Assembly: GCA_028872875.1 (NCBI GenBank)
Contig: JAGWOC010000001.1
Span: 49,983 to 113,982, forward strand
Direction: 5' to 3'
DNA from: Chloroflexota bacterium
GTDB lineage: Bacteria > Chloroflexota > Dehalococcoidia > DSTF01 > JACRBR01
Length of the DNA stretch: 64,000 bases
A program made the position numbers and the translations under genes. A model generated the notes under the pieces. The model was not told the DNA's origin. It saw only the letters and a list, made by a program, of their open reading frames with translations, and searched no databases. Each line of letters opens with the position of its first letter. Positions within the stretch are counted from its first letter, which is position 1. Below are positions 31,190 to 61,922 of the stretch, piece by piece.

Positions 31190-33355
<2,166 letters not shown>

Positions 33356-33564: not shown

Positions 33565-33740
33565 AGGACTGCCATCGCTTGTCAAGCTGTGTGTGCCGGG
33601 ACACCATCGCATGCGTTACGTAATCTTTTCAGCGCGTCAACGGTTGCTGGCCTACAACCATTGCATTAGTCCGCTCAAAGAGTAGGATCGTCCCACCATC
33701 GTCGGAATGCTCTCACGGCATGGGGCCGAAACGAGGCGGC

Positions 33741-36700
33741 ATGTTCTCAGCACGCGCGTGTGCGGGGGCCCTTGCCCTCCTGGCCATCGGCGTCATCGTG
33801 GCGGGTGGCTCGCCCGGGCCCCTGCAGGGCGCCCGGCTGCCGGCCGCTGTTGCGGTAGCGCCGGCGGCGACGCCCGCCATACCCATGGTGGCTGTCGGCG
33901 GCCGGCACACCTGTGCGCTCAACAGCAACGGCGCCGTGCGCTGCTGGGGCCGCAACGCCGACGGCGAGCTCGGCGACGGCACGACGATCAGCCGGCAGCG
34001 CCCGGCCCTCGTCGCCGGCCTGAGCAGCGGCGTCACGGCGATCGCCGCGGGCTTCTCGCACACCTGTGCGCTGACCACCGGCGGCGGCGTCAAGTGCTGG
34101 GGCAGCAACGCCGACGGCGAGCTGGGCGACTTCACGCAGGTGAACCGATCGATGCCGGTCGACGTGATCAACCTAACGACCGGCGTCGTCGCCATCTCCG
34201 CCGGCGACCGCCACACGTGCGCGCTGCTGGCGGCCGGCGGCATGCGCTGCTGGGGCTACAACGTCTACGGCGAGGTCGGCAACGGCACCAGCGGCAACCT
34301 CTGGCTCGGCGCCGTCGACGTCTGCACGAGCGGCTCCGGCATTGGCTGCGCCGGCGGCGCGCCGCTCACCGGCATCGCATCGATGTCGGCCGGCGGCATC
34401 AACACCTGCGCCGTGACGACGGCCGGCGCCCTGAAGTGCTGGGGCGGCAACTACAGCGGCCAGTTGGGCCTCGGCATCCTGTCGGACAGCCCGCTGCCGC
34501 CCGGGGGCGTCTGTCCTACGTCCCCGGACGCCAACGCCACGTGCATCTCCCTTCCGACCGACGTCCCGAGCCTGCAGAGCGGGGTCGCGGCGGTCAACGC
34601 GGGCCAGACCGCGTGCGCGCTGACCACGGCCGGCGGCGTGATGTGCTGGGGGCTCAACAATGTGGGGGAGACCGGCAGTGGCATCGTGTCGCCCTGCAAC
34701 CCGAAGGTGCCGCCGCAGCCATACGTGGCGTGCGATCGCCCGCAGCCCGACCCGGCCGCTGTGAGCGGCCTGAGCAGCGGCGTCGCCGCGATCTCGGGCG
34801 GCTGCGCACTGCTGTTGACCGGCGGGGTGAAATGCTGGGGAGAAAACCTGTTCGGCCAGATCGGCGACGGCACGACAACCGTCCGGACGACGCCGGTGGG
34901 CGTGTTGGGCCTGGGGTCCGGCGTCGCATCGATCGGTCCGGGCCAAGACGCCGTGCACCACTGCGTCACGATGGCCGCGGGCGGCCTGAAGTGCTGGGGG
35001 TCGAACAGTTGGGGCCAGTTGGGCGCGACATCTGCCGACACTTGCTTTCTCGGCTTTGCCTGCAGCCTCGTGCCGATCGACGTGCAGCAGTGCACGATCT
35101 GCGTGCTCGACATGTCTTTCGAGCACCAGGTCTATCCCGACGAGGCCAACTGGGCGCCGGTCGCCGCGCAAGGGACGGTCGATGGCAACCAGGTGCGCGT
35201 CAAGGCGACGCTCCGGAACCAGGCGGGCACCGATCAGCCGGTCACGGTCGAGTTCCGTGACGCGGACACGGGTACGCTCCTGCCCGGCGGCTCGATCGAT
35301 GGCACGGTACCGGCGTCGGGCGAGTTACCCGTCACCTACGTCTGGAATACAGACGGTTTTGCCTGGGACGGCGGCGCCGCGCGCAGCCCCCGGCACGTCC
35401 GCGTCACCGTCCTGCAGGGCGCGACGACGCAGGACACCGACATCCGCGGCATCAAGATCGTCCCGAAGCCGGTCGTGCTGGTGCACGGCTGGAACAGCAA
35501 TTTCGGCACCTGGGCGTCATACCAGGGGTTCCTGACGTCGGTCAGCCCGGACTGGAAGGCGTTTGCTGTCGGCGACGGCCAGGCGCCCGGCGTCATGAAC
35601 ACGGGCTCGATGTCCCATCCCTTCACGCTGACCAACACCATCGACCAGAACGCCATCGAGATGTCGCAGTACGTGCACGGCGTCCGCCAACAGATGAACG
35701 CATGGCACGTCGATGTGGTCGCGCACTCCATGGGCGGGCTGATCTCGCGGGACTACATCCAGTACTGGATGCCGCCGGACGCGTATGCGCGTCCCGTCAT
35801 CGACCATCTCGTGATGCTCGGCACGCCGAACCAGGGCACCTCGTGCGCCGACCTCGGGGCGGCCATCCTTGGGCCGCTGGGAGCCGGCGCCTTCCTGTTT
35901 CCGGCGACCCTGCAACTCACCAAGACCTACCTCGCGATCTTCAACCAGCAGGTGACGAACCGCCGCGGCGTGAAGTTCTCGATTTCCGCAGGCGACCCGA
36001 TCCCGATCACTTGCCTCGAAGGTGCGGGCGACGAGATCGTGCCGTACCGAAGCGCCCTCATGCTCGACCCGCTGCCCGGGACGCCGATCACCGACTCGGA
36101 GTCGCGCTCGATCCTGCACCACCACATGCCGGGCGATCCGGGCCAGTTCAACCAGTTCGTCAAGCCGCGGCTCACCGGCGTCCTGCCAGCGCCCGCGGCA
36201 GCGTCGGCCGCTGGTGCGCACGCGCCCGTACGAGCTGTCGCCGCCGTTGCACCGCCGCCGGTCGTCGCGCCGCAGATCCTGGCGGGAGTCGGTGTCGAGG
36301 TCGCGGCCGGGGGGATGGCGGACGTGCCCTTCACGGTGACCGATGGCACGCGCATCGGTGTGACGCTGATCGCCGCGTCCTCGGTGACGACAGAGCTGCA
36401 CAATCCAGTGGGTACGGTCGCGGCCTCGGCCGCGGCGGGCAGCGACGCCGCGCAGGCGGGCCTGCGCACGCTCACGGTCGATACCCCCAGCGCCGGCGTC
36501 TGGACGCTGCACCTCGTGAACACGGATGGCGCCGCGCCGGCAGACGTCGCCGGGTCGGCGTGGGTCGACGGCAGCGCGGTGCAGCTCGTCCTCGCGCCGC
36601 CCACACCGGCTCCGGACGGCTCAGTCCCGCTCACCGCCACGCTCACCAACGGGGGCAGCGCGCTGGCGGGCGCCACCATCACGGCCATGCTCACGGGCGC

Positions 36701-39700
36701 CGACGGCCTGCACGGCCCGGCGACTCTGCTCGATGACGGGCTGCACGGCGACGGCGCGGCCGGCGACGGGATCTACGGCGGCACGACGGCCGCGCTAGCC
36801 CCCGGGCTTTACAGCGTCGCGGTACAGGCCACCGCCCCCGGCGTCTCGCGATTCACAACCGGCGCGGTCGAGATCGCGACCGCGGCCGCCACGCCCACAC
36901 CGACGGCCAGCGCGACCGCCAGCAGCACGCCGACAAGCGCCGCCACCGCCACACCCACGCCGACGGACACGCCCACCGCTGTGCCGACCGCGACCGACAC
37001 GCCGGCCGTCACCAGCACCGCGACGGCGACGCCAACGGCGACCGCGACGCCCTCGCTCGTGTACAACGTGAACAGCACCGCCGACGTCGTCGATGCGCAC
37101 CCCGGCGACGGCGTCTGCGCCACCGGGGCCGGCGAGTGCACGCTCCGTGCCGCGGTCATGGAGGCCAACGTCCAGTCGATCCGCGCCGGCATGCCGACGA
37201 TCAACCTCCCGGCGGGCGTCTACACGCTGACTCGCGGCCCGGCCGACGACATCCGCTTCGGGTCGGACTTCGTTGATTCGTCGGGCGACCTGGATCAGCG
37301 GAGCATGGCCATCCACGGCGCCGGTCCCTCCGCCACGATCATCGACGGCGGCCGCATCGACCGGATCTTCGAGGTGTTCGGTGACCACGTCACGATCAGC
37401 GGCGTCACGCTCCGCAACGGCGATGCGAAGCTTGCGGACGGGACGCAGACGGTCGGCGACGCGATCTTCGTCTACGGCCCCGGGAGTGCGAAGCTGTCGC
37501 TCAGCGACGCCGTCATCAGCGGCAACGGCGCCGGCGATGCCGCGATCGCGGTCAACGGCGCGCTCACGATCACCGACAGCACCATCGAGGGGAACGCCGG
37601 CGGCGGCATCCGCGTCGGGAACGGTTCGCTCTCCCTGCTGCGCAGCAGCGTCAAGGGCAACGCCGGCGCCGGCATCCGCACCGAGAATCAGTACGGCTTC
37701 GGGACCGCGACCGTCACGGACAGCACGATCAGCGGCAACCACCTCGGTGGTGACGGCGCGGGCGTCTGGAACAGCGGCGCGCTGACGCTCCTCCGCAGCA
37801 CCGTCAGCGGCAACACCGCCGGTGGCCGCGGCGGCGGCATCGCGAACTTTGGCACGGCGACGATCACCGACAGCACGATCAGCAGCAACGCCGCCGAGGT
37901 GGACGGTGGCGGCATCTTCAACGACTTCCCGCGCGCCGCGCACCTGACGCTCACGAACGTCACCGTCGCGCACAACCTCGCGGATAGCGACCAGACGGGC
38001 TCGGGCGACGGCGGCGGCGTCTACAATGGCGGCATCGGCACCGTTACGCTCACCAACACGCTCCTCGCCGCGAACACCGATGCGGGCGGAGAGGCGCCGG
38101 ACTGCGGCGGCTCGCTCGTGTCCGGCGGGCACAACCTCCTCCAGTCCTCAGCCAGCTGCGCGCTCTCGCCGCAGGCCGGCGACCGCATCGGCGTCACGGC
38201 CGCGCTCGGCCCGCTCGCCGACAACGGCGGCCCGACGTTCACCCACGCCCTCCTCGCGGGCAGCCCGGCGATCGACGCCGCCGACCCGCTGATGTGTGGC
38301 GCGACGGACCAGCGCAGCCGAGTCCGCCCCGTCGATGGCAACGCCGACGGCACCCCCGTGTGCGACATCGGCGCCGTCGAGTTCGACCCTGCGGACGGGC
38401 CGCCGGCGTCGCTGGCGCCGCCCCCGCCCGCACCGGCGCCGCTCGTCGCGTTCACCGTCGACAGCTTCGCCGACGGCGTCGACGCCGCGCCCGGCAACGG
38501 CGTCTGCGCGACGGCCGGCGGCGCCTGCACGTTGCGCGCCGCCGTCATGGAGGCGAACAAGCTCTCCGGCACGAACGTCATCAGGCTCGGCGCCGGCACC
38601 TACCAGCTCTCGATCCCGACGCTGGAGGTCTACGCCCCGGACGCCTCGCGGGGCGACCTTGACGTGTCCGAAGGGCTCGTCATCGAAGGCACGGGCGCGG
38701 CGGCGACCGTCATCGACGGTGGAGGGCTCGACGGCGTCATCAACAGCGGCGGGGTGCTGGAGCTCAAGGGACTGACGATCCGCAACGGCGCGCCGTCGCA
38801 CACCCCGGGCGGCGCCAGCGTCGGCGGCGGCGGCGTGGGCGCGCTCGTCCTGCTGCTCCAGGATGTGGACGCGACGGGGAACCAGGGCACCGCGGTCGGC
38901 GGCGGCTGGATCGTCGCACGCCGCATCCACGTCACTTCGAATAGCATCGGATCCGCGGTATCTACAGGGTACGGCTCGCTGTTCCTGGCCGACAGCATCG
39001 TCAGCGGCACGGCCTTCGGCGGCGGCATCACGACGAGCGTCCCGGCCGTGGTCCTCCGCTCCACCGTCACGGGAAACGCCCGGAGCGGCATCGACATCCA
39101 GGACGCGTCGGCCGACATCATCGACAGCACGATCAGCGGCAACCACGCCGACACGAGTGGTGGCGGCGTCGAGATTGGGTACGGCGACGTGCGCATCAGC
39201 GGCACGACCATCGACGGCAACAGCAGCACCGGCAGCGGCGGCGGCATCGACAACAACGGCACCCTCGTGCTCACCAACAGCACGATCAGCGGCAACAGCG
39301 CCAGCCAGTGGGGCGGCGGCCTGATCAACAACAATCTTGGCACGGCGACACTGCGCAACGTGACGATCACCGCCAACACGGCGCAAAGCGGCGGCAGCGC
39401 CTTCGGCGATGGCGGAGGCATCTACCAGAGCAGCATCCACGCGATCACCCTCGAAAACACGATCATTGCCGGCAACACCGACGCCGGCGGCCAGGCGCCC
39501 GACTGCTCGGGCACGCTCCCGTCGCCGTCCTACAACCTGATCGGCGACATGAGCGGCTGCACGATCGTCGGCACCAGCACGGCGAACATCCTCGGTCGGG
39601 CCGCCCGCCTCGGCCCGCTGCAGGACAACGGCGGGCCGACGCTGACGCACGCGCTGCTCGCCGGCAGCCCCGCCATCGACCAGGGCGGCGACGCCCTGTG

Positions 39701-40448
39701 CGCGCCGACGGACCAGCGCGGCGTCCGCCGCCCGATCGACGGCGACGGCGACGGCGTGGCGGCGTGCGACATCGGCGCCTTCGAGGCCCCAGCCGTCGCC
39801 GGCGCACCGACGGCAACACCCACGAGCACGCCAACCGCCACGCCAACCGCCACGGCGACGGACACGCCGGTGGCTACCAGCACGCCCACGTCCACCCTGA
39901 CGCCGCCCGCGACCAGCACCAGCACGCCGCCCGCCTCCGCAACCAGCACCGCGACGGATACACCGGTGCCGACCACGACCGCGGCACCCACGGCGACCGC
40001 CACAACCACGGCCGTGCACACCGCGACGGCCACAGCTACCTCCATCGCGACGAGCACGCCCACGCCGCCCGCCACCGCGACGGCCGTGCCCCCGGCGAAG
40101 GCGACAGCAAGCAGCACGTCCACCGTGACGGCGACGGCGACGCCCACGCCGGCGGGCTCGGCGGCACCGATCTACTCTGTCGCCACGGCGACCCCGTCAT
40201 CCGCTCCGGCGCCGAGCCCGTCGCCATCCGGCGCCACGCCCCGGGCGACCCCTACGCTGGTCAGTAGCGCGCTCGCCGCCACGGCACAACGCGGCGGCTC
40301 GGCGCCGGTTGCCGGTCTACCCAACACCGGCGCAGCACCGCCCAGGGCGTCCGCCGGGCCGCGCACATGGCTTATGGCGGCTGGCGTGCTCGCCCTCATC
40401 GCGCTCGCGGCCGCACACGCCGCGTCACGCGGGCGGCGCCGCCGCTAG
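33741..40448 (+). CDS. giant LPXTG-anchored multidomain surface protein: signal peptide, RCC1 propeller, beta-sandwich, LipA-type lipase domain, 2x CSLREA/beta-helix/choice-of-anchor-Q-like modules, T/P-rich linkers, LPNTG sorting signal
   Basis: Single ORF 33720..40448. ATG 33741 is preferred (GAGG 5 nt upstream; signal peptide MFSARACAGALALLAIGVIVAGG). RCC1-type repeats with recurring HTCAL...CWG.N..GELG. Lipase-like block PKPVVLVHGW...VDVVAHSMGGLISRDY (AHSMGG at 35721-35738). Two modules begin GDGVCAT..C.LRAAVMEAN (37138-37170 and 38526-38558) and end GGPT.THALLAGSPAID...TDQR...RP.DG..DG...CDIGA(V/F)E (38361-38384 and 39766-39789). C-terminus LPNTG (40317-40331) + AAGVLALIALAAAHAA + RGRRRR. 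Confidence 0.85.
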   Translation: MFSARACAGALALLAIGVIVAGGSPGPLQGARLPAAVAVAPAATPAIPMVAVGGRHTCALNSNGAVRCWGRNADGELGDGTTISRQRPALVAGLSSGVTAIAAGFSHTCALTTGGGVKCWGSNADGELGDFTQVNRSMPVDVINLTTGVVAISAGDRHTCALLAAGGMRCWGYNVYGEVGNGTSGNLWLGAVDVCTSGSGIGCAGGAPLTGIASMSAGGINTCAVTTAGALKCWGGNYSGQLGLGILSDSPLPPGGVCPTSPDANATCISLPTDVPSLQSGVAAVNAGQTACALTTAGGVMCWGLNNVGETGSGIVSPCNPKVPPQPYVACDRPQPDPAAVSGLSSGVAAISGGCALLLTGGVKCWGENLFGQIGDGTTTVRTTPVGVLGLGSGVASIGPGQDAVHHCVTMAAGGLKCWGSNSWGQLGATSADTCFLGFACSLVPIDVQQCTICVLDMSFEHQVYPDEANWAPVAAQGTVDGNQVRVKATLRNQAGTDQPVTVEFRDADTGTLLPGGSIDGTVPASGELPVTYVWNTDGFAWDGGAARSPRHVRVTVLQGATTQDTDIRGIKIVPKPVVLVHGWNSNFGTWASYQGFLTSVSPDWKAFAVGDGQAPGVMNTGSMSHPFTLTNTIDQNAIEMSQYVHGVRQQMNAWHVDVVAHSMGGLISRDYIQYWMPPDAYARPVIDHLVMLGTPNQGTSCADLGAAILGPLGAGAFLFPATLQLTKTYLAIFNQQVTNRRGVKFSISAGDPIPITCLEGAGDEIVPYRSALMLDPLPGTPITDSESRSILHHHMPGDPGQFNQFVKPRLTGVLPAPAAASAAGAHAPVRAVAAVAPPPVVAPQILAGVGVEVAAGGMADVPFTVTDGTRIGVTLIAASSVTTELHNPVGTVAASAAAGSDAAQAGLRTLTVDTPSAGVWTLHLVNTDGAAPADVAGSAWVDGSAVQLVLAPPTPAPDGSVPLTATLTNGGSALAGATITAMLTGADGLHGPATLLDDGLHGDGAAGDGIYGGTTAALAPGLYSVAVQATAPGVSRFTTGAVEIATAAATPTPTASATASSTPTSAATATPTPTDTPTAVPTATDTPAVTSTATATPTATATPSLVYNVNSTADVVDAHPGDGVCATGAGECTLRAAVMEANVQSIRAGMPTINLPAGVYTLTRGPADDIRFGSDFVDSSGDLDQRSMAIHGAGPSATIIDGGRIDRIFEVFGDHVTISGVTLRNGDAKLADGTQTVGDAIFVYGPGSAKLSLSDAVISGNGAGDAAIAVNGALTITDSTIEGNAGGGIRVGNGSLSLLRSSVKGNAGAGIRTENQYGFGTATVTDSTISGNHLGGDGAGVWNSGALTLLRSTVSGNTAGGRGGGIANFGTATITDSTISSNAAEVDGGGIFNDFPRAAHLTLTNVTVAHNLADSDQTGSGDGGGVYNGGIGTVTLTNTLLAANTDAGGEAPDCGGSLVSGGHNLLQSSASCALSPQAGDRIGVTAALGPLADNGGPTFTHALLAGSPAIDAADPLMCGATDQRSRVRPVDGNADGTPVCDIGAVEFDPADGPPASLAPPPPAPAPLVAFTVDSFADGVDAAPGNGVCATAGGACTLRAAVMEANKLSGTNVIRLGAGTYQLSIPTLEVYAPDASRGDLDVSEGLVIEGTGAAATVIDGGGLDGVINSGGVLELKGLTIRNGAPSHTPGGASVGGGGVGALVLLLQDVDATGNQGTAVGGGWIVARRIHVTSNSIGSAVSTGYGSLFLADSIVSGTAFGGGITTSVPAVVLRSTVTGNARSGIDIQDASADIIDSTISGNHADTSGGGVEIGYGDVRISGTTIDGNSSTGSGGGIDNNGTLVLTNSTISGNSASQWGGGLINNNLGTATLRNVTITANTAQSGGSAFGDGGGIYQSSIHAITLENTIIAGNTDAGGQAPDCSGTLPSPSYNLIGDMSGCTIVGTSTANILGRAARLGPLQDNGGPTLTHALLAGSPAIDQGGDALCAPTDQRGVRRPIDGDGDGVAACDIGAFEAPAVAGAPTATPTSTPTATPTATATDTPVATSTPTSTLTPPATSTSTPPASATSTATDTPVPTTTAAPTATATTTAVHTATATATSIATSTPTPPATATAVPPAKATASSTSTVTATATPTPAGSAAPIYSVATATPSSAPAPSPSPSGATPRATPTLVSSALAATAQRGGSAPVAGLPNTGAAPPRASAGPRTWLMAAGVLALIALAAAHAASRGRRRR

Positions 40449-51877: not shown

Positions 51878-53125
51878 ATGATCACGAGGCGCGATTTCGT
51901 GAAGAAGGGCGTGGCGCTGGTCACGCTGGGAAGCATGCACGCGATGCTGCCGCCGGTGTTCAAGGGCGCGTTCGCGATCCGCGCGTCGGACGCCGAAGCG
52001 GACACGCTGCCGGCGCGCACGCTCGTCATCCTGCAGTTCGCGGGCGGCAACGACGGGTTGAACACCGTCGTGCCCTATCGCGACCCCGCCTACGCGAAGG
52101 CGCGACCGTCGATCGGCGTCAAGGCGGACGCCGTGTTGGCGCTCGATGACCATGTCGGCCTGCACCCGAAGCTCGCGGGCCTGAAGAAGCTGTGGGACAG
52201 CAAGAAGCTCGCGGTGGTGCAGGGTGTCGGCTACCCGGACCCGAACCTCTCGCACTTCCAGTCCATGCTGATCTGGGAGAACGCCGGCCGGCAGGCGGCA
52301 AACGGCGAAGGGTGGCTCGCGGGCTACCTCGACCGCCTCGAGGCGGAGGAGCACGACCCGCTGCACGGTTTCAACGTCGGGCAGTTCGTGGCGCCGGAGC
52401 TGTACGCGGCCAACGCGCCCACTGTCGCCGCCCCGAGCGCAAACGCGTACGGCTTCCAGCGCCTGGCCCCGGACGAGGCGGAGGCGCGCCGGCGCCAGAC
52501 CGCGCTGCTGAAGATGTACGAGCAGTTCCCGAAGGACACGCCGTACGCCGCGCTGCTCGAAAGCACGGCCGGCGACGCCGTCTCCAGCTCGCAGGCGGTC
52601 GACGCGGCCGCGACCGCGCACACCCCCACCGTGGCATACCCGGAGACCTCGCTCGCGAGCGGGCTCAAGCTCGTGTCGCAGGTGATCGCCAGCGGGGCGA
52701 AGCTGCGCGTCGCGCACGTGACGCTCGGCGGCTTCGACACGCACTCCGGCCAGCAGCCGGAGCAGGAGAAGCTGCTCGGCGACGTCGGCGACGCGCTCGC
52801 CGCCTTCTATGCGGACCTCGCGTCGTACGGCAAGGACGGCGACGTGCTGACGATGACCTGGTCCGAGTTCGGCCGCCGCGTGCAGGAGAACGCGAGCCAG
52901 GGCACCGATCACGGCACCGCCGCGCCGATGTTCCTCGTCGGCGGCAGCGTCAAGGGCGGGCTGTACGGCGAGGCGCCGTCGCTGACGAGCCTCGATAACG
53001 GCAACCTGAAGTTCACGACGGACTTCCGTTCGGTGTACGCCACGCTGCTCGAACAGTGGTGCGGCGCCCCCGCCGATGCCATCCTCGGCGCCCACTACCC
53101 GCAGATCGGCGGGCTCGTGGCGTAG
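51878..53125 (+). CDS. DUF1501 family protein with Tat signal (sulfatase-like fold)
   Basis: GAGGAGG lies 6 nt before ATG 51878. MITRRDFVKKGVALVTLGS is a Tat signal. LVILQFAGGNDGLNTVVPY...GGFDTHSGQ...QGTDHGTAAPMFLVGG are DUF1501 signatures. Confidence 0.65.
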   Translation: MITRRDFVKKGVALVTLGSMHAMLPPVFKGAFAIRASDAEADTLPARTLVILQFAGGNDGLNTVVPYRDPAYAKARPSIGVKADAVLALDDHVGLHPKLAGLKKLWDSKKLAVVQGVGYPDPNLSHFQSMLIWENAGRQAANGEGWLAGYLDRLEAEEHDPLHGFNVGQFVAPELYAANAPTVAAPSANAYGFQRLAPDEAEARRRQTALLKMYEQFPKDTPYAALLESTAGDAVSSSQAVDAAATAHTPTVAYPETSLASGLKLVSQVIASGAKLRVAHVTLGGFDTHSGQQPEQEKLLGDVGDALAAFYADLASYGKDGDVLTMTWSEFGRRVQENASQGTDHGTAAPMFLVGGSVKGGLYGEAPSLTSLDNGNLKFTTDFRSVYATLLEQWCGAPADAILGAHYPQIGGLVA

Positions 53126-53257
53126 GGGCGCAGCTTGCCGCGCCCCGGTCCGGCCCCCGGCCGCTGTGTGCCGTGCCCGACCCATTGGTGTGGCTGTTAC
53201 GGCCGCCTCGCGTAGGGGCGCTGCTTGCCGCGCCCCGGTCCGCCGCCCGGCCGCTGT
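53121..53257. repeat. two copies of a 47-bp direct repeat (53121-53167 and 53211-53257; 44 of 47 identical), each containing a GC hairpin GGGGCGC-agcttgc-CGCGCCCC and starting with CGTAG
   Basis: Read directly. The first copy starts at the TAG stop of the DUF1501 gene. No U-tract follows either hairpin. Confidence 0.8.
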
Positions 53258-53297
53258 TCGCGGCCCCCTCCGCGGTCCGCACCAGCGGCGATCGGCT

Positions 53298-54575
53298 ATG
53301 CTGTCGCCGATGCCGCGCGAAGCTGCGAAGTATCGGATCACCGGTGGCCACCGGCTGCACGGCCGTGTGCACATCAGCGGCTCCAAGAACGGCGCCGACT
53401 ACGCGATGGCGGCCGCGCTCCTCACCGCCTCCGACGTCGTGCTGCACAACGTGCCCGAGATCGGCGACGTGCGCCAGATGGAGGAGATCCTCGCGCACCT
53501 CGGGGCCACGGTGGAGCACCCGGCGCCGCACACGCTCCGGATCAACGCGGCGGACCTGTCGCGCTTCGAGGTGCCGGCGCGCCTCGCGGCGCAGCTCCGC
53601 GCCAGCTTCCTCGTGATGGGGCCGCTCCTAGCGCGCATGGGCCGCGCGTCCTGCCCGCCGCCGGGCGGCGACGCCATCGGCATCCGCCCGCTCGACGTAC
53701 ACCTCGCCGGCTTCCGCATGCTCGGCGCCACCGTCGAAGAGGACGGCCAGGCCTTCGACGTGCGCCTCGACGGCCCCCTGCGCGCCGGCCGCGTGCTGCT
53801 CGACTACCCGAGCGTCATGGGCACGCTCAACGTCATGCTCGCCGCGACGCTCGCCGATGGTGCCACGACGATCATCAACGCGGCGAGCGAGCCCGAGATC
53901 GCCAGCCTGGCACAGATGCTGAACGCGATGGGCGCGAACATCACCGGCGCCGGCTCCAACGTCGTGCGCATCGAGGGCGCCCGCGCGCTCGGCGGTGTCG
54001 AGCACCGCGTCATCCCGGACCGGCTCGAAGCCGGGACCTTCGCGCTGGCGGCGGCGATCACGCGGGGCGAGGTGTTGCTCGAGGACGCGGTCCCGGAGCA
54101 CCTGGATGCGCTGCTCTGGAAGATGGAGGAGGCAGGGGCCGCCGTGCGCGCCACCGAGGCCGGACTGCACGTCGCCGGCGCCGTGCGCTACCGCGCCGTG
54201 AGCGCGCAGGCGCTGCCGTATCCGGGCCTCGCCTCCGACCTGCAGCCGCAGCTCGCGGCCTTCCTCACCCAGGCCGAGGGCGCCAGCACGATCCACGAGC
54301 GCGTCTTCGACAACCGGCTGCTGTACATCAGTGAGCTGCGCAAGATGGGCGCGGACGTCATGGCGACGGGCACCACGGCCATCATCACGGGGCCGACCCA
54401 GCTTCGCGCCGCACCTGTCACCGCGCTCGACGTGCGCGCCGGCAGCGCCTGCGTCCTCGCCGCGCTCGTCGCCGAGGGGACGACCGAGATCAGCGATGTC
54501 TACCACATCGACCGCGCGCACGAGGACCTTCATGGTAAACTGCGCGCGCTCGGCGCCTCGATCGAGCGCGCCTGA
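53298..54575 (+). CDS. murA: UDP-N-acetylglucosamine 1-carboxyvinyltransferase
   Basis: ATG 53298 (MLSPMPREAAKYRITGGHRLHGRVHISGSKNGA...). Catalytic Cys in GRASCPPPGGDAIGIRPLD. Full-length EPSP-synthase fold. The upstream part of the track ORF is translation of the repeat region. Confidence 0.93.
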   Translation: MLSPMPREAAKYRITGGHRLHGRVHISGSKNGADYAMAAALLTASDVVLHNVPEIGDVRQMEEILAHLGATVEHPAPHTLRINAADLSRFEVPARLAAQLRASFLVMGPLLARMGRASCPPPGGDAIGIRPLDVHLAGFRMLGATVEEDGQAFDVRLDGPLRAGRVLLDYPSVMGTLNVMLAATLADGATTIINAASEPEIASLAQMLNAMGANITGAGSNVVRIEGARALGGVEHRVIPDRLEAGTFALAAAITRGEVLLEDAVPEHLDALLWKMEEAGAAVRATEAGLHVAGAVRYRAVSAQALPYPGLASDLQPQLAAFLTQAEGASTIHERVFDNRLLYISELRKMGADVMATGTTAIITGPTQLRAAPVTALDVRAGSACVLAALVAEGTTEISDVYHIDRAHEDLHGKLRALGASIERA

Positions 54576-54690
54576 GCCGGAAGAGCCCGTCGTCTCGCAC
54601 GCGCGCGCCGGTCCCGCTGCCATCGCAGCAGCACGTTGTCCTGTCCGCGTCTCCGGCGTGAGGCGCTGACCCGGGAGGGGAGAAGGATCG

Positions 54691-55722
54691 ATGTTACCCA
54701 AGAGGATTGGAGTCGACCTGGGCACGGCGAACGTGCTGGTCTACGTCAAGGGCCGCGGCATCGTCATCAACGAGCCGTCCGTCGTCGCCCTCGCCAACCG
54801 CGATAACACCGTCGTCGCCGTCGGGCGAGAGGCGCAGGAGATGATGGGCCGCGTCCCCGGCAGCATCAGCGTCATCCGGCCGATGCGCGACGGCGTCATC
54901 GCCGACTACCTGATCACCGAGGCGATGCTCCGCTACTTCATCCAGAAGGTGATCGGCCGGTTGAACCTGATCAAGCCGGAGGTGATGGTCTGCATCCCCG
55001 CCGGCGTCACGAGCGTCGAGCAGCGCGCCGTGCGCGACGCGGCGGAGCAGGCCGGCGGGCGGCGCCCCGTGCACCTGGTGCCGGAGCCGCTCGCCGCAGC
55101 GATCGGCGCGCGCATCCCTGTCAACTCGCCCAGCGGCAACATGGTCGTGGACATCGGCGGCGGCCGCACGGAAGCCGCCGTGATCTCGATGTACGGCATC
55201 GTTGTCAGCGAGAGCGTCCGCGTCGCCGGCGACCGGCTCGACGATGCGATCGTGGCCTACGTCAAGCGCCGCTATAACCTGCTGATCGGCGACCGCACCG
55301 CGGAGGAGATGAAGGTCACGATCGGCGCCGCGGTCCCCCTCGAGCAGGAGCTGAAGATGGACGTGCGCGGCCGCGACCAGATCAGCGGCCTGCCGAAGAC
55401 CGTCACCGTCTCGACGAGCGACGTCACGGCGGCGATCCAGGACGCGCTCGCGACCATCGTCTCCGTCGTGCGGACCGTGCTGGAGCGCACGCCGCCCGAG
55501 CTCGCGTCCGACGTCATCGACCGCGGCATCGTGCTCACGGGCGGTACGGCGCTGCTGCGCCACCTCGACATCCTGCTGACGCAGGAGACCGGCATCCCCT
55601 GCCAGGTCGCCGAGAACCCGATCGACTGCGTCGCCATCGGCGCCGGCGTCGCCCTCGAGTACCTCGACGTCATCAAGCGCAGCCTGCCGACCGAAGAGGA
55701 GACGCTCGTCGCGAGCTACTAG
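54691..55722 (+). CDS. mreB: rod-shape-determining actin homolog MreB
   Basis: [28 protein letters not shown]...[13 protein letters not shown]...[11 protein letters not shown] are the actin-fold phosphate 1/2 and adenosine motifs. No mreC/mreD follow. Confidence 0.95.
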
Positions 55723-55907
55723 CGGCGCGCCCTGGCGCCTCCACGTTCCCGTGGCTGACCCGTGAGCGAGGGCTCTTCCGGCACCGCATTGCGGATTCCT
55801 CACTCCCCGGCGGCTGATTCCGGTCTCCGCGATCTGTTACCGTGGATGAACGCGCCCTTCGCCCGCCGTGTGGCGCCCCGCGGACGGAAGCAGACCAGGA
55901 GGCCCCG

Positions 55908-56654: not shown

Positions 56655-59600
56655 CCAGCCTCTTCGGCATCCCGATGAACGATGTGATGATCGCGCTGCT
56701 GATCCTGCTGGGGATCGCGGTGGCGACCGTCGGCTGGGTCGTGCTGCGCAACCGCGTCATGTTCCTCATCGGTGTGCGCAACATCCCGCGCCGCCGCGCC
56801 CAGACCACGCTGATCATCGTCGGCCTGATGCTGAGCACGCTGATCATCGCCGCCGCCTTCAGCATCGGCGACACCGTCAACTACAGCATCACGAACCAGG
56901 GGTTCGAGGAGCTGCACAGCATCGACGAGACCGTGCAGGCGCAGGCGAGCAGCTCGGACGGGGGCGGCCTGGGCTCGGTCGTCTCGCCGCTGCCCATCCC
57001 GCAGGCACAGGCCGACAGCTTCGCGCAGGCGTTCCGGGCCATCCCCGGCATCGATGGCGCCGTCCCCGTCCTCCGCGGCAGCGTGCCCGTCACCGACCAG
57101 CGCAGCGGCCTCGCCGAGCGGAGCGCGGTCGTCGCCGGCGCCGACCCGGCGCGGATGGCCGGCTTCCCCGACATTGAGAGCACGAGCGGCGCCCTCCTGT
57201 CGCTCGCCGCGCTCGGGCCGGACGAGGTCTACGTCAACAGCTCGCTCGCCAGCAAGCTCGACGCAAAGCCCGGCGACCGCGTCACCTTGTACGTGGGCGG
57301 GCAGCCAACCACGTTCACCGTGAAGGACATCGTCAAGGACCGCGTGCTCACGGGCAGTGTGTTCGGCCAGCCGCAGGGCATGGCGATGAGCCTGGCGCGC
57401 GCGCAGGAGCTGTTCAAGCGCCCCGGCGAGGTGGACTTCATCGCTGTCTCGAACAACGGCGGCGTGCACAGCGGCATCAACAACTCGACCGCCATCACTG
57501 CCGCGCTGAACCAGAAGCTGGCGGCGCTCGGGGGCACGAAGTGGAAGGCCGACGCCACCAAGCAGCACCTGGTGAACCAGGCGGAAAAGGCGGCGAGCGG
57601 GCTGACCGCCTTCTTCGTCGTGCTCGGCCTCTTCTCCATCGCCTCCGGCATGCTGCTGATCTTCCTCATCTTCGTCATGCTCGCCGCCGAGCGGAAGATG
57701 GAGATGGGGATGACGCGCGCCATCGGCACCAAGCGGCGTCACCTGATGCAGATGTTCCTCTCCGAGGGCATGGCGTACAACCTGATGGCCGCGGCCGTGG
57801 GCTGCGCGCTCGGCGTCGCGGTCTCGCTGGTGATGGTGCGGGTAATGGCCGCGCTCTTCAGCCAGTTCAACCTCTCCATCGTCTTTCACGTGACCGCGCG
57901 CAGCCTGGTCGTGTCGTACGCGCTCGGCGTCGTGCTGACGTTCCTCACGGTGACCTTTTCGTCGTGGCGCATCAGCAGCCTCAACATCGTCAGCGCCATC
58001 CGCGACATCTCCGATGCCAGCGGCAAGCGGCCGGGACGCTGGTCGGCCGCCTTCGGCTTGCTCTTCGCCGTCGCCGGCCCGCTGCTGCTCTGGCTTGGCG
58101 TCGCGTCGCTGCAGGCGTTCCCGTACATGCTCGGGATCACGGTGCTGGCGATCGGCGTGGCGCTGCTCGCGCGGTTCGTCGGCCTGCCATCGCGGCCGGT
58201 GTTCACGGTGGCCGGCCTCTTCCTCGTCGGCGTCTGGCTGGTCGGCGCCGGCAACCACCTGCCGCCGAGCGGCATGCACGGCGGCATCGAGATGTTCTTC
58301 CTCAGCGGCATCGCGATGGTCACGGCGTCGACCTTCGTGCTGGTGTACAACGCCGACCTGCTGCTGCTCCTGCTCTCGCCCTCCGGCGGCGCCTTCTCGA
58401 AGCTCACCCCTTCGATCCGCACCGCGGTCGCCTACCCGCTCGCGAACAAGTTCCGCACCGGCATGACGATCGCCATGATCTCGCTCGTGGTCTTTGCCCT
58501 GGTGATGATGTCGACGATGAACGCGAACTTCAGCCGCATCTTCCTGAGCAAGGAGGCGCAGGGCGGCTACGACGTGCAGGTGACGCAGAACCCGAACAAC
58601 CCCATCCCCGACCTGAAGGCGGAGCTGGCAAAGAACGGATTCGATACAACAGCGATCAAGAACGTGAGCCCCGTGCTGGTCGCGAACGCGCGCGCTGCCA
58701 ACGTGCGGATGGCGCCGCCGGCCGGTGCGAGCCCGAGCATCAGCACGCCGCCGTACGACTTCGCTCCCTACCGCACGCTCGGCATGTCTGCCTCCTTCAT
58801 CGAGCACAACGCCGTGACCTTCCAGTCGCGCGCGAACGGCTTCGCCAGCGACGCCGCAGTCTGGCGCGCGCTCGCCGAGAACCCCGGGTACGCGGTCATC
58901 GACGCGTCGTCGCTCGGCGGCGCCGGCTTCAGCTTCGGCGGCGGCTCGCGGTTCCGGCTGCGGGGCGTGCATTCGACGGACACCACCTTCGCTCCGATCG
59001 CCGTGCAGGTGCGCGATGCGGCGACGGGCGCCACTCGCAGCGTCAAGATCATCGGCATCATCACGCTGCAGGCGAGCGAGACGTTCTCCGGCCTCTTCCT
59101 GACGCAGCAGACGTTCGACGCGCTGTTCACGCGCCCGGAGACGACCATCGACTTCGTGAAGCTGGCGCCCGGCACCGACGCGCGGACCGCCGCCAAGGGC
59201 ATCGAGAAGGCGCTGCTCCTCGACGGCGTCCAGGCCGATGCGCTGCGCGCGCTGATCGACCAGCGCCAGGCGCTCAGCCAGGGGTTCCTCTACCTCATCC
59301 AGGGCTTCATGGGGCTCGGCCTCTTCGTCGGCATCGCCGCCGTCGGCGTCATCGCCTTCCGGACGGTGGTGGAGCGGCGGCAGCAGATCGGCATGTTGCG
59401 CGCGATCGGCTACACGAAGGCGGCGGTCGCGCTGAGCTTCGTCATGGAGTCGTCATTCATCGCGCTGCTCGGGGTGCTGAGCGGGATCGGCCTCGGGCTG
59501 CTGCTCGCGCACCAGTTGATCACCGGCGCGGACTTCGCGCCGAATGCCATCTCGGGCTTCTACATCCCGTGGCTGCAGGTCGCCGGCATCGGTCTCTTCG

Positions 59601-59686
59601 CGTTCCTTGCCTCGCTCGTCATGACGATCATTCCTTCACGGCAGGCGTCGTCGATCCCGATCGCCGAGGCGCTCCGCTACGAATAG
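56651..59686 (+). CDS. ABC transporter permease with duplicated FtsX-type domains (MacB-like; 1011 aa)
   Basis: GTG 56651 overlaps the ATPase TGA (GTGA). Two repeats of (TM - large extracytoplasmic domain - 3 TM with FtsX-like [15 protein letters not shown] / [13 protein letters not shown]). The upstream part of track ORF 55868..59686 is another frame of the ATPase gene. Confidence 0.85.
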
Positions 59687-59741
59687 CGCGCCGCCTGCTC
59701 GCTGCCGTAGTCTGAAGCGCCGCGACAGGCGCACGGTCGCC

Positions 59742-59981
59742 GTGAGGCGCGGAAGCGAACAGGACGCCGCCGTGAAGACAGAGATCTGGGAATCCGACCC
59801 GTTCACGCCGAAGAAGGGCCAGCTCCTGGCGACGCTGGACAGCGAGTATCGCTTCCAGAAGGGTGACGAGGTCTACTTCGATGACGCCCCCACGCGCCTC
59901 AAGGTGCGCATCATCGACGTCCGTGTGCACATCAAGGGCGACGGTGCGGTGCACCGCGAGATCCTCGCCTTGAAGCTGTAG
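59742..59981 (+). CDS. hypothetical small protein (about 70-79 aa)
   Basis: VKTEIWESDPFTPKKGQLLATLDSEYRFQKGDEVYFDDAPTRLKVRIIDVRVHIKGDGAVHREILALKL has ordinary composition. The start is uncertain (GTG 59742 or GTG at VKTEI). No clear SD. Confidence 0.4.
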   Translation: MRRGSEQDAAVKTEIWESDPFTPKKGQLLATLDSEYRFQKGDEVYFDDAPTRLKVRIIDVRVHIKGDGAVHREILALKL

Positions 59982-60114
59982 CCCCGCCAGCCGCCCCCGA
60001 CTGCGGCGATGAAGGTGGGCGCCCCTCGCCCGCGCCCCGGGGAGCGCGCCGCATCCGCCCGGTGTCACTCGCAAGCGCGCTGCTTCGTTGACCCACAGGT
60101 GACTCGATGCTACA

Positions 60115-60132
60115 TTGCGCAAAATTGCGCAA
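60115..60132. promoter_or_regulatory. Rex-operator-like 18-mer TTGCGCAAAATTGCGCAA (two copies of the self-complementary octamer TTGCGCAA) overlapping the -10 of a TTGACC-17-TACATT promoter upstream of rex
   Basis: -35 TTGACC at 60088-60093, a 17-nt spacer, and -10 TACATT at 60111-60116. The 18-mer is palindromic except for its 2 central nt. The Rex consensus TTGTGAAnnnnTTCACAA shares the outer TTG...CAA and the 18-bp geometry. Confidence 0.55.
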
Positions 60133-60174
60133 TCGCCCGGCTTCTCCCGCCCCCGCCGCCGCGCAGGAGCCTCC

Positions 60175-60816
60175 ATGCCCATCGAGATCCCTGACGTCGT
60201 GATCGACCGCCTTCCCGTGTATGCCCGGGCGCTCGCGCTGCTCGACCGCAACGGCCGCGCAGTCGTGAGCTCCCAGGAGCTCGGCGCCCAGCTTGGCGTC
60301 ACGCCCGCCCAGATCCGTAAGGATCTCAGTTACTTCGGCCGCTTCGGCAAGCAGGGGCGCGGCTACAGCGTCCCCCGGCTGCTCGAGGAGCTGCGCCAGA
60401 TCCTCGGCCTCGACCGCGAGTGGACGATGGTGCTCGTCGGCGTTGGCCAGCTCGGCCGCGCCATTCTCGCCTACGGTGGGTTCGCGCCGCAGGGCTTCCG
60501 CATCATCGGCGCCTTCGATGCCGAGCCCGCCACCATCGGCCAGCAGGTCAACGGTGCGCGTGTGCAGCCGGCTTCCGAGCTCGAGGCATCGCTGCGCACG
60601 CGACCGGCCGACATCGGCATCGTCGCCACGCCGGCCGCGCAGGCGCAGCAGGTCATCGACCGGCTCGTCGGCTGCGGCGTCAAGGCGATCCTGAACTACG
60701 CGCCGATCGCCGCCCACGTGCCGCCGCACGTGCACATCAAGGACATCGACCCCGTGCTGTCGCTGCAATCGATGACCTTCTACCTCAAGAGCCAGCTCAC
60801 GGCGCCCGTGAAGTAG
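60175..60816 (+). CDS. rex: redox-sensing transcriptional repressor Rex
   Basis: AGGAG lies upstream of ATG 60175. RLPVYARALALLDRNGRAVVSSQELGAQLGVTPAQIRKDLSYFGRFGKQGRGYSV is the wHTH. VLVGVGQLGRAILAY is the Rossmann NADH-binding GxGxxG. Confidence 0.9.
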   Translation: MPIEIPDVVIDRLPVYARALALLDRNGRAVVSSQELGAQLGVTPAQIRKDLSYFGRFGKQGRGYSVPRLLEELRQILGLDREWTMVLVGVGQLGRAILAYGGFAPQGFRIIGAFDAEPATIGQQVNGARVQPASELEASLRTRPADIGIVATPAAQAQQVIDRLVGCGVKAILNYAPIAAHVPPHVHIKDIDPVLSLQSMTFYLKSQLTAPVK

Positions 60817-60848
60817 CGCGACGCGCGGCGCCGCCGCATTCCCGCCGC

Positions 60849-61769
60849 TCAGCGCCGCAGCCCGTTCCGCAGGAAGAACCAGAGGTTCGCTGGCCGCTCG
60901 GCGAGCCGCCGCATCAGGTACGGATACCAGTGCGTCCCGTACGGCACGTAGATGCGGACGCCGTAACCCCGCGCCCTGAGCGAGCGCTGGAGCTCCGGAC
61001 GGATGCCGTAGAGCATCTGGAACTCGTATCGATCGGGGGCGACCCCGTGCCGCCGGGCGGAGCGCAGCGCCGCCCGCACCATGCGCCCGTCGTGCGTCGC
61101 CACGGCGAGGCGTCCGCCCGGCGCCATCGCCGCGAAGTATGCGTCGGCGAGCCGCGTGAAGCTCTCGTCCACCTCGCGCTTCGACGCGAACGCCATGGTC
61201 TCCGCCTCGCGATACGCGCCCTTGACCAGCCGCACCGGCGCCCCCTCGCGCGCGAGCGCGTCGATGTCCGCGGCGCTCCGCCGCAGGTACGCCTGGATGA
61301 CGACGCCGACGCCCGTGTGCCGCTCCCGCGCCCGGCGGAAGATGTCGAGCGTTGCCTCGGTGTAGCGCGCGTCCTCCATGTCGATGCGCACGAAGGTGCC
61401 GGCCGCGGCTGCGGCGCGCAGCACCTCGTCCAGCGACCGCTCTGCCAGCGGGCGGTCGAACGCCAGCCCCAGTTCGGTCAGCTTGATCGAGATGCTGCTG
61501 CGCAGGCCGCGCGCCTGCGCCGCCGCCGCGAACGACGTGGACTCGGCAACCGCGGCGCGCACCTCGCGCTCGCTGGTCACCGCTTCGCCCAGGTACGAGA
61601 CGGTAGCATCGAATCCCCCGGCGTTGAGCCGCGCCACGGCGGCGAGCGCATCCGCCTGGCGCTGGCCCGCGACGAAGCGCCGCGAGAAGCCGCGGAAGCC
61701 CGGCACGGAGGTCGCGATGCGTTCGGCGGTGCCGCTGCGCGAGAGGGCGAAGATCAGCGCGCTGAGCAT
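60849..61769 (-). CDS. proline dehydrogenase (monofunctional PutA-like PRODH)
   Basis: ATG 61769 (MLSALIFALSRS...). RIDMEDARYTEATLDIF...GVGVVIQAYLRRS...VRLVKGAY...YEFQMLYG are the PRODH TIM-barrel motifs. The upstream 26 codons of the track ORF are junk. Confidence 0.8.
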   Translation of the reverse strand: MLSALIFALSRSGTAERIATSVPGFRGFSRRFVAGQRQADALAAVARLNAGGFDATVSYLGEAVTSEREVRAAVAESTSFAAAAQARGLRSSISIKLTELGLAFDRPLAERSLDEVLRAAAAAGTFVRIDMEDARYTEATLDIFRRARERHTGVGVVIQAYLRRSAADIDALAREGAPVRLVKGAYREAETMAFASKREVDESFTRLADAYFAAMAPGGRLAVATHDGRMVRAALRSARRHGVAPDRYEFQMLYGIRPELQRSLRARGYGVRIYVPYGTHWYPYLMRRLAERPANLWFFLRNGLRR

Positions 61770-61922
61770 GCAGGCAGCGTACGCGGCCAGGCGCCCGCCC
61801 GCACGGTGTCCGCGGCGCGCCGTGCCGGGCCGACTCGCCGCCCCCACGCGGTTGGCCGTATCTGCCGCGATCGGCTAGATTGGGCTGCCTGCTCCGGCCC
61901 CGCGATCTCCCGAGGTAGCCCG

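Follow-up and report, generated by a model that had tools for sequence, protein, structure and literature searches.

A Rex-operator-like palindrome on the rex promoter of an uncultured Dehalococcoidia bacterium as a candidate site of autorepression

Repression of rex by its own product is well known from other bacteria. It has been shown experimentally for the rex-hem operon of Streptomyces, including that of S. avermitilis (PMC5355995), and for Streptococcus agalactiae (structure 3KET), whose rex is monocistronic with a promoter that Rex shifts in EMSA (PMC8376106). In Streptomyces coelicolor and S. avermitilis, the promoter of the rex-hemACD unit contains its operator (ROP), an inverted repeat of 18 bp, at -39 to -17 over the -35 element; Rex represses its own transcription, NADH relieves its binding, and its footprints span 23-29 nt (PMC5355995). 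Validated Rex operator sites usually carry no more than three mismatches to the consensus TTGTGAANNNNTTCACAA.

The bases read by Rex are known from two complexes. In that of S. agalactiae, Arg50 and Arg51 hydrogen-bond with both guanines of TTGTGAA, an arginine of the wing enters the minor groove to read the outer A/T, and the thymine between the guanines (T4) is touched via water only (PMC8376106). In the complex from Thermotoga maritima, Arg48 contacts G3, Lys49 contacts G5 and touches the A6:T pair, and Arg60 and Gly61 read T1/T2 (PMC8836258). The T. maritima operator that was crystallised, TM0201 (ternary complex 7WB3), carries A rather than T at position 4 of one half-site (TTGAGAA), and a base other than T is thus tolerated at this position (PMC8836258). 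Furthermore, the clostridial variant TTGTTAANNNNTTAACAA (Ravcheev et al. 2012, cited through PMC5367854) shows that a lineage can alter the consensus symmetrically while keeping the 7-N4-7 geometry.

The locus described here lies in a 64-kb stretch of DNA, referred to below in its entirety as the window, from an uncultured member of the Chloroflexota (class Dehalococcoidia; GC ~70%) whose nearest relative in the collections is the metagenome-assembled genome WY5.bin150. An 18-bp palindrome precedes its rex gene and, judged from sequence comparison, is quite likely to be the operator by which a Rex dimer represses its own monocistronic gene. This reading is supported because the box is conserved and enriched upstream of rex, because the bases read by Rex are kept, and because the protein is a full Rex.

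As in Streptomyces, the promoter of the rex unit holds an 18-bp inverted repeat, for which the same autorepression with relief by NADH is proposed. However, the box covers the -10 element and +1 rather than the -35, the gene is monocistronic instead of being co-transcribed with heme genes, and positions 4/15 and 6/13 are C/G in both halves; the C at position 6 is shared with the S. avermitilis operator TTGTGCACGCGTTCACAA (PMC5355995). The window rex resembles that of S. agalactiae in being monocistronic, and the contact bases of the streptococcal complex, namely the two guanines and the outer A/T, are all present in the box (PMC8376106). Yet streptococcal operators are AT-rich and have the canonical form TTGTGAAN4TTCACAA, whereas the window box is GC-rich, and the streptococcal protein has RR in its recognition helix and Arg62 in its wing where the window Rex has RK and Gln. 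With T. maritima Rex, the window protein shares Arg48 and Lys49, but the wing Arg60 is Gln in the window lineage, and the TM0201 operator is AT-rich and asymmetric in contrast to the GC-rich box with its symmetric arms. Finally, the clostridial variant, as quoted in PMC5367854, alters positions 5/14 (G to T) throughout a regulon, while the window box alters 4/15 and 6/13, keeps G5, and has been seen in its GC-rich form at the rex promoter only.

The rex gene and the palindrome on its promoter

The gene at 60175-60816 is a bona fide rex. Its product contains Pfam domains PF06971 (N-terminal winged helix) and PF02629 (Rossmann NAD(H) domain), scores above the cut-offs of the NCBIfam Rex models, matches T. 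maritima Rex (5ZZ5) at 3e-47, and aligns over its full length with the Rex structures of T. maritima, T. thermophilus, B. subtilis and S. agalactiae. Residue roles were assigned by ungapped alignment to T. maritima Rex, following PMC8836258. The DNA-contact residues Arg12, Ser33, Gln46, Arg48, Lys49, Ser52, Gly58, Gly61 and Tyr64 are retained, as are the NAD(H)-binding residues G89xG91xxG94, Ala96, Tyr100 and Asp115, so that the GxGxxG motif, Tyr100, Asp115 and the recognition pair Arg48/Lys49 that mark the family accompany both of its domains. Three contact residues are changed relative to T. maritima: Glu34Gln, Lys43Thr and, in the wing, Arg60Gln, with an arginine at position 62 instead. Wing residues 58-64 (window 60346-60366) read GKQGRGY in 81 of 81 Dehalococcoidia proteins and GKRGVGY in T. 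maritima; the arginine that contacts the outer thymine through the minor groove in T. maritima Rex has thus become Gln, and an arginine stands two residues further on.

The features of the locus are as follows.

59742..59981, + strand: small ORF of 79 aa counted from the first GTG, with conservation beginning near residue 10
60088..60093, + strand: -35 hexamer TTGACC of the rex promoter, from a promoter scan
60108..60116, + strand: extended -10, TGcTACATT, with TG at 60108-60109 and the hexamer TACATT at 60111-60116
60115..60132, no strand assigned: 18-bp Rex-operator-like box TTGCGCAAAATTGCGCAA (TTGCGCA-AAAT-TGCGCAA), from sequence, conservation and enrichment
60122..60124, + strand: candidate transcription start, an A 6-8 nt past the -10 at the box centre, placed by promoter geometry
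60165..60169, + strand: ribosome-binding site AGGAG, 5 nt 5' of the ATG; its GGAG is kept in the close-clade alignment
60175..60816, + strand: rex, 213 aa, monocistronic, from domain and structure-based matches
60849-61847, convergent with rex: proline dehydrogenase, the next gene downstream

The original prediction had proposed a promoter made up of TTGACC, a 17-nt spacer and TACATT, overlapped by an 18-bp near-perfect palindrome with two copies of an octamer, in front of a rex gene with an AGGAG ribosome-binding site. Each of these elements was recovered exactly as described, and the TG upstream of TACATT adds an extended -10. In a promoter consensus scan this is the sole sigma70-like site in 59600-61000, where 0.1 would be expected from shuffles. 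The last two T of TACATT double as the first two bases of the box, whose half-sites occupy 60115-60121 and 60126-60132, and 42 nt separate the box from the ATG at 60175. The box shares bases with the -10 of the rex promoter and spans its probable start site. Self-complementarity extends to 16 of its 18 positions, the symmetry being broken by the central AA alone, and A60114 and T60133 widen it to a 20-bp palindrome ATTG...CAAT (60114-60133; 18/20 symmetric). The octamer TTGCGCAA occurs twice in the window, both times inside the box.

The box has the 18-bp inverted repeat, the 7-N4-7 geometry and the outer TTG...CAA of a Rex operator, and it lies within a promoter of a genome that encodes Rex. 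Against TTGTGAANNNNTTCACAA it shows four mismatches, at positions 4, 6, 13 and 15, and nowhere in the 64-kb window does a sequence come within three mismatches of the canonical Rex consensus. The mismatch count weakens its claim to be a canonical ROP, although this does not lower the functional reading. The likeness to the Rex consensus had been among the arguments for the site, and its length and outer TTG...CAA do bear this out; the match of 10/14, on the other hand, is at chance level when taken alone, with ~2.5 such matches per shuffled window. What lies beyond chance is the perfect symmetry of the box, its place on the rex promoter and its conservation in relatives. The exact pattern of 16 specified bases is expected only ~4-7e-6 times per window under base composition or a first-order Markov model.

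If the box is the operator, each winged-helix domain of the Rex dimer would read one half-site (TTGCGCA / TGCGCAA) of an element reaching from the last two -10 bases to about +10. Loaded with NAD+, or when the NADH/NAD+ ratio is low, Rex would remain bound, cover the -10 along with the start site, and thereby shut out RNA polymerase or prevent open-complex formation; that bound Rex would cover both follows from the position of the box together with the 23-29-nt footprints. Rising NADH would then bind the Rossmann domain and part the recognition helices, upon which Rex would leave the DNA and rex would be transcribed. The predicted outcome is NADH/NAD+-responsive negative autoregulation that resets the level of Rex. 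The anatomy of the locus, the identity of the protein and the conservation described below are shown by sequence, whereas Rex binding to the box and the start site are inferred, and the NADH response is predicted by analogy with the described systems.

The small ORF upstream bounds the 193-nt intergenic region that holds the rex promoter; with this distance between its end and rex, it is probably transcribed as a unit of its own. It has no match to a Pfam or NCBIfam family. By tblastn the ORF is present in 15 relatives: in 13 close-clade loci it immediately precedes rex, and in L006 and L025 it has another place within the locus. Further upstream, at 53076-55722 and just 5' of an ABC transporter-rex cluster, lie murA (EPSP_synthase family) and mreB; both genes also adjoin rex in the sister-clade locus L053, which suggests that murA/mreB-rex is a conserved neighbourhood.

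Conservation of the box in front of rex

The comparison set consisted of 80 rex loci from related Dehalococcoidia, one genome per species, with 62-94% protein identity, or 81 loci with the window. Across these 81 loci, an 18-bp box with TTG.G/C.CAA arms is ~500 times commoner upstream of rex than elsewhere. The core TTGNGN8CNCAA has 32 matches in the 250 nt upstream of rex (81 loci, 20 kb) and four in the other 1.25 Mb. The literature consensus TTGTGAAN4TTCACAA served as an independent yardstick: of the 200-nt regions upstream of rex, 74% match it at 10/14 or better, as opposed to 1.2% of the control windows taken within these loci. The enrichment loci are phylogenetically related, and P-values for these comparisons accordingly overstate the number of independent observations.

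While the sequence flanking the box is fully diverged among the compared loci, the box itself is kept. When the 19 closest promoters are aligned, conservation is limited to the -35, a G-TG-TACA segment, the box with a flanking TC, and the ribosome-binding site. The -35 is invariant or nearly so in 18 of these 19 and the G-TG-TACA columns are invariant, yet the most invariant part of the alignment is the right half-site, despite its location in transcribed DNA without a promoter role.

The same promoter and box are present throughout the closest clade, with single-base variants of the box that include TTGCGAAAAATTGCGCAA, TTGCGCCAAATTGCGCAA, TTGTGCCGAATTGCGCAA and TTGTGCGGAAATTCGCAA. More distant clades carry increasingly canonical boxes in the same place, for example TTGTGCCGAAATGCGCAA, TTGTGCTTGATAGCACAA, TTGTGACCAAAATCGCAA, TTGTTACGGATTTCACAA and TTGTGAAGTAGTTCTCAA, and in one group of loci the box, TTGTAATTGTGAGCACAA, instead lies just 5' of the -35. 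Arranged by spelling, TTGTGAAGTAGTTCTCAA, TTGTTACGGATTTCACAA, TTGTGCCGAAATGCGCAA, TTGCGAAAAATTGCGCAA and TTGCGCAAAATTGCGCAA form a graded series at one promoter position, which passes from the near-canonical form (TTGTGAAGTAGTTCTCAA, TTGTTACGGATTTCACAA) via TTGTGC..GCGCAA to the GC-rich form.

The two half-sites drift independently of each other and without compensatory changes. Of the 36 distinct boxes, 18 have T·A at positions 4/15, nine have T·G, seven C·G, and one each T·T and C·A, and positions 6/13 are complementary in only 18. Such drift would be the behaviour of an operator bound by a dimer and not that of a hairpin. Together, the footprint in relatives, the enrichment upstream of rex and the retained contact bases uphold the proposal that the site is a Rex operator and a candidate for autorepression.

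Base recognition and alternative readings

In both halves of the window box T1, T2, G3 and G5 are retained, and all changes are confined to positions 4/15 and 6/13. Of the two altered pairs, C6 has a precedent in the footprinted rex operator of S. avermitilis, TTGTGCACGCGTTCACAA. The S. avermitilis sequence TTGCGAAAGTTGTCGCAA, which has the same C4/G15 change as the window box and one further mismatch, is listed in the putative-target table that supplied the EMSA probes and is absent from the probes reported as bound (PMC5355995); canonical Rex may therefore tolerate C4/G15 poorly. The helix-turn-helix and wing of Rex (23 residues) are identical in 81 of 81 proteins, whichever type of box they accompany, and across these 81 proteins there is no co-variation of operator type with the Rex reading head. 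Since the reading head is the same in all of them, no specificity switch can be deduced.

Because the directly read bases are kept and the reading head is identical in 81 genomes, the simplest reading of these sequences is that the GC-rich core (C4/G15, C6/G13) represents clade-specific drift of one operator in a 70% GC genome at positions to which Rex makes no direct hydrogen bonds, and that one unchanged Rex would accept both the canonical and the GC-rich spellings. Given the Arg60Gln change in the wing, a genuine change of specificity is nevertheless conceivable: the Rex of this clade might have a shifted or relaxed recognition code, with the altered wing (FGKQGRGY for FGKRGVGY) fitting GC-rich boxes, although we consider this unlikely. 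The suggestion that the box is a lineage-specific, GC-rich operator variant thus holds for the rex promoter within the clade, but it does not extend to a demonstrated change in specificity, given that the reading head is invariant across clades and that the clade itself has canonical-type boxes at a second promoter.

The geometry of the Rex box coincides with that of a CRP-type box (TTGTGA-N6-TCACAA), which raises the question as to whether the palindrome could instead serve another dimeric regulator of rex, such as a CRP/FNR-type or a different winged-helix protein with the same 18-bp geometry. CRP/FNR sites have the form TGTGA-N6-TCACA or TTGAT-N4-ATCAA, and for activation are typically centred near -41.5 or -61.5. 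Here, the half-sites read TGCGC/GCGCA and are centred at about +1, and a location over the -10 and +1 suits a repressor rather than a class I or class II activator. That the GC-rich core differs from the Rex consensus in four of 14 positions, and that the similar C4/G15 site is absent from those bound by Streptomyces Rex (PMC5355995), does lend this alternative some weight. However, rex is the only gene that constantly accompanies the box across more than 60 diverged loci, the series of boxes grades into canonical Rex boxes, and no candidate regulator is conserved beside it, the neighbours being the familyless 79-aa protein and the convergent proline dehydrogenase. A regulator other than Rex is accordingly improbable.

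Still less probable is an element of the promoter or transcript itself, whether a GC-rich discriminator or initial transcribed region that affects open-complex stability, or a hairpin in the 5' UTR. The left half-site does stand at the discriminator position, where its GCGC is GC-rich, and a hairpin with a 7-bp stem could in principle arise from the 18-mer. Yet if transcription starts ~7 nt past the -10, the left arm would not be transcribed; moreover, the predicted 5' UTR folds no better than shuffled sequences (z = +0.49), and no Rfam family reaches its gathering score in that region. The uncompensated changes in single arms, with half of the distinct boxes mispaired at positions 6/13, likewise oppose a hairpin, and the strongest conservation falls on the symmetric right half (about +3 to +10), where a promoter element has no role.

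That the palindrome is a functionless product of chance can be dismissed: even though 10/14 matches to the Rex consensus are expected in shuffled windows and copies of the exact pattern are common in unrelated metagenome contigs (at least 120), the pattern itself is expected only at the low frequency given above, and box and promoter have been kept in 18 other genomes despite diverged flanks.

Two further interpretations were tried and rejected. The two TTGCGCAA units, 10 bp apart, could be taken for a direct repeat in the style of response regulators, but relatives keep the TTG.G...C.CAA inversion and not the repeat. The literature match for TTGCGCAA is a eukaryotic C/EBP site only and is irrelevant.

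Further sites and the reach of the Rex box

Neither the 64-kb window nor the ~320 kb of close-clade flanks yielded a second site in a position weight matrix (PWM) search at 14 bits or more, and a regulon with the GC-rich spelling is therefore not demonstrated. When PWMs were run over the window, 18 close-clade loci and the full set of 80 rex loci, 13 matches fell outside rex promoters versus 11.4 expected, and there is thus no general enrichment. Two groups of matches recur at the same promoter in related loci, namely those at the atp and ABC-ATPase promoters.

In three sister-clade loci (L045, L067 and L065), a Rex-like box covers the -10 of the atpZ-atpB promoter: TTGTGAACTATAGCACCA at L045:20346-20363, TTGTGAACTGTAGCACCA at L067:20361-20378, and a related box of the TTGAGAACCCTAGCACAG type at ~20430-20450 in L065. 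These boxes overlap a TATAGT-like -10, are followed by a small AtpZ-like gene and then F0 subunit a, and lie ~10 kb from rex. In S. avermitilis, Rex is proven to target the atp operon (PMC5355995), which by sequence is probably a target in Dehalococcoidia as well. The atp boxes support a working Rex regulon in the class, and not the GC-rich spelling specifically.

The second group consists of canonical-type boxes within the close clade, at the promoter of a MacB-type ABC transporter ATPase that is located upstream of rex in some genomes; they comprise TTGTGATACATTTCACGA at L016:1526-1543, TCGTGATAGGATTCACGA at ~2100 in L003, and another at L010:5451-5468. The equivalent position in the window (~55830-55860) reads CTGTTACCGTGGATGAAC and contains no credible box.

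Elsewhere in the window, a weak Rex-like match, TTGCATTAGTCCGCTCAA at 33661-33678, scores 12.4 bits, which is at chance level, and is without G5. It sits between a divergent catalase-peroxidase gene (31190-33325, - strand) and a gene at 33720-40448 (+ strand) whose 2242-aa product has RCC1 repeats and a lipase/thioesterase-like domain.

A scan of metagenomes for the exact pattern with TTGCGCAANNTTGCGCAA accounted for the unrelated copies noted above, in contigs with a GC of 0.32-0.71, and among the matches listed no contig encodes Rex nearby; these copies have no bearing on a regulon. Three metagenome contigs unrelated to the window (L123:304-340, L124:4413-4460 and L174:200-240) carry short tandem arrays with a 10-bp period, the units of which contain TTGCGCAA, for example TTGCGCAATTTTGCGCAATTTTGCGCAAT.

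The finding leaves the understanding of the Rex mechanism unchanged. It would instead extend Rex autoregulation to uncultured, high-GC soil and groundwater Chloroflexota (Dehalococcoidia) that are known from metagenome-assembled genomes alone, and it indicates how far a functional-looking Rex box can drift in GC-rich genomes, with four symmetric departures from the consensus and every directly read base intact. A cut-off of three mismatches to the Rex consensus would overlook the window box. If the recognition code of the clade had indeed shifted, searches with a TTGTGAAN4TTCACAA matrix would miss the Rex regulons of abundant uncultured soil bacteria. A position matrix fitted to this lineage can be drawn from the boxes assembled here and used to predict redox-controlled genes in its genomes.
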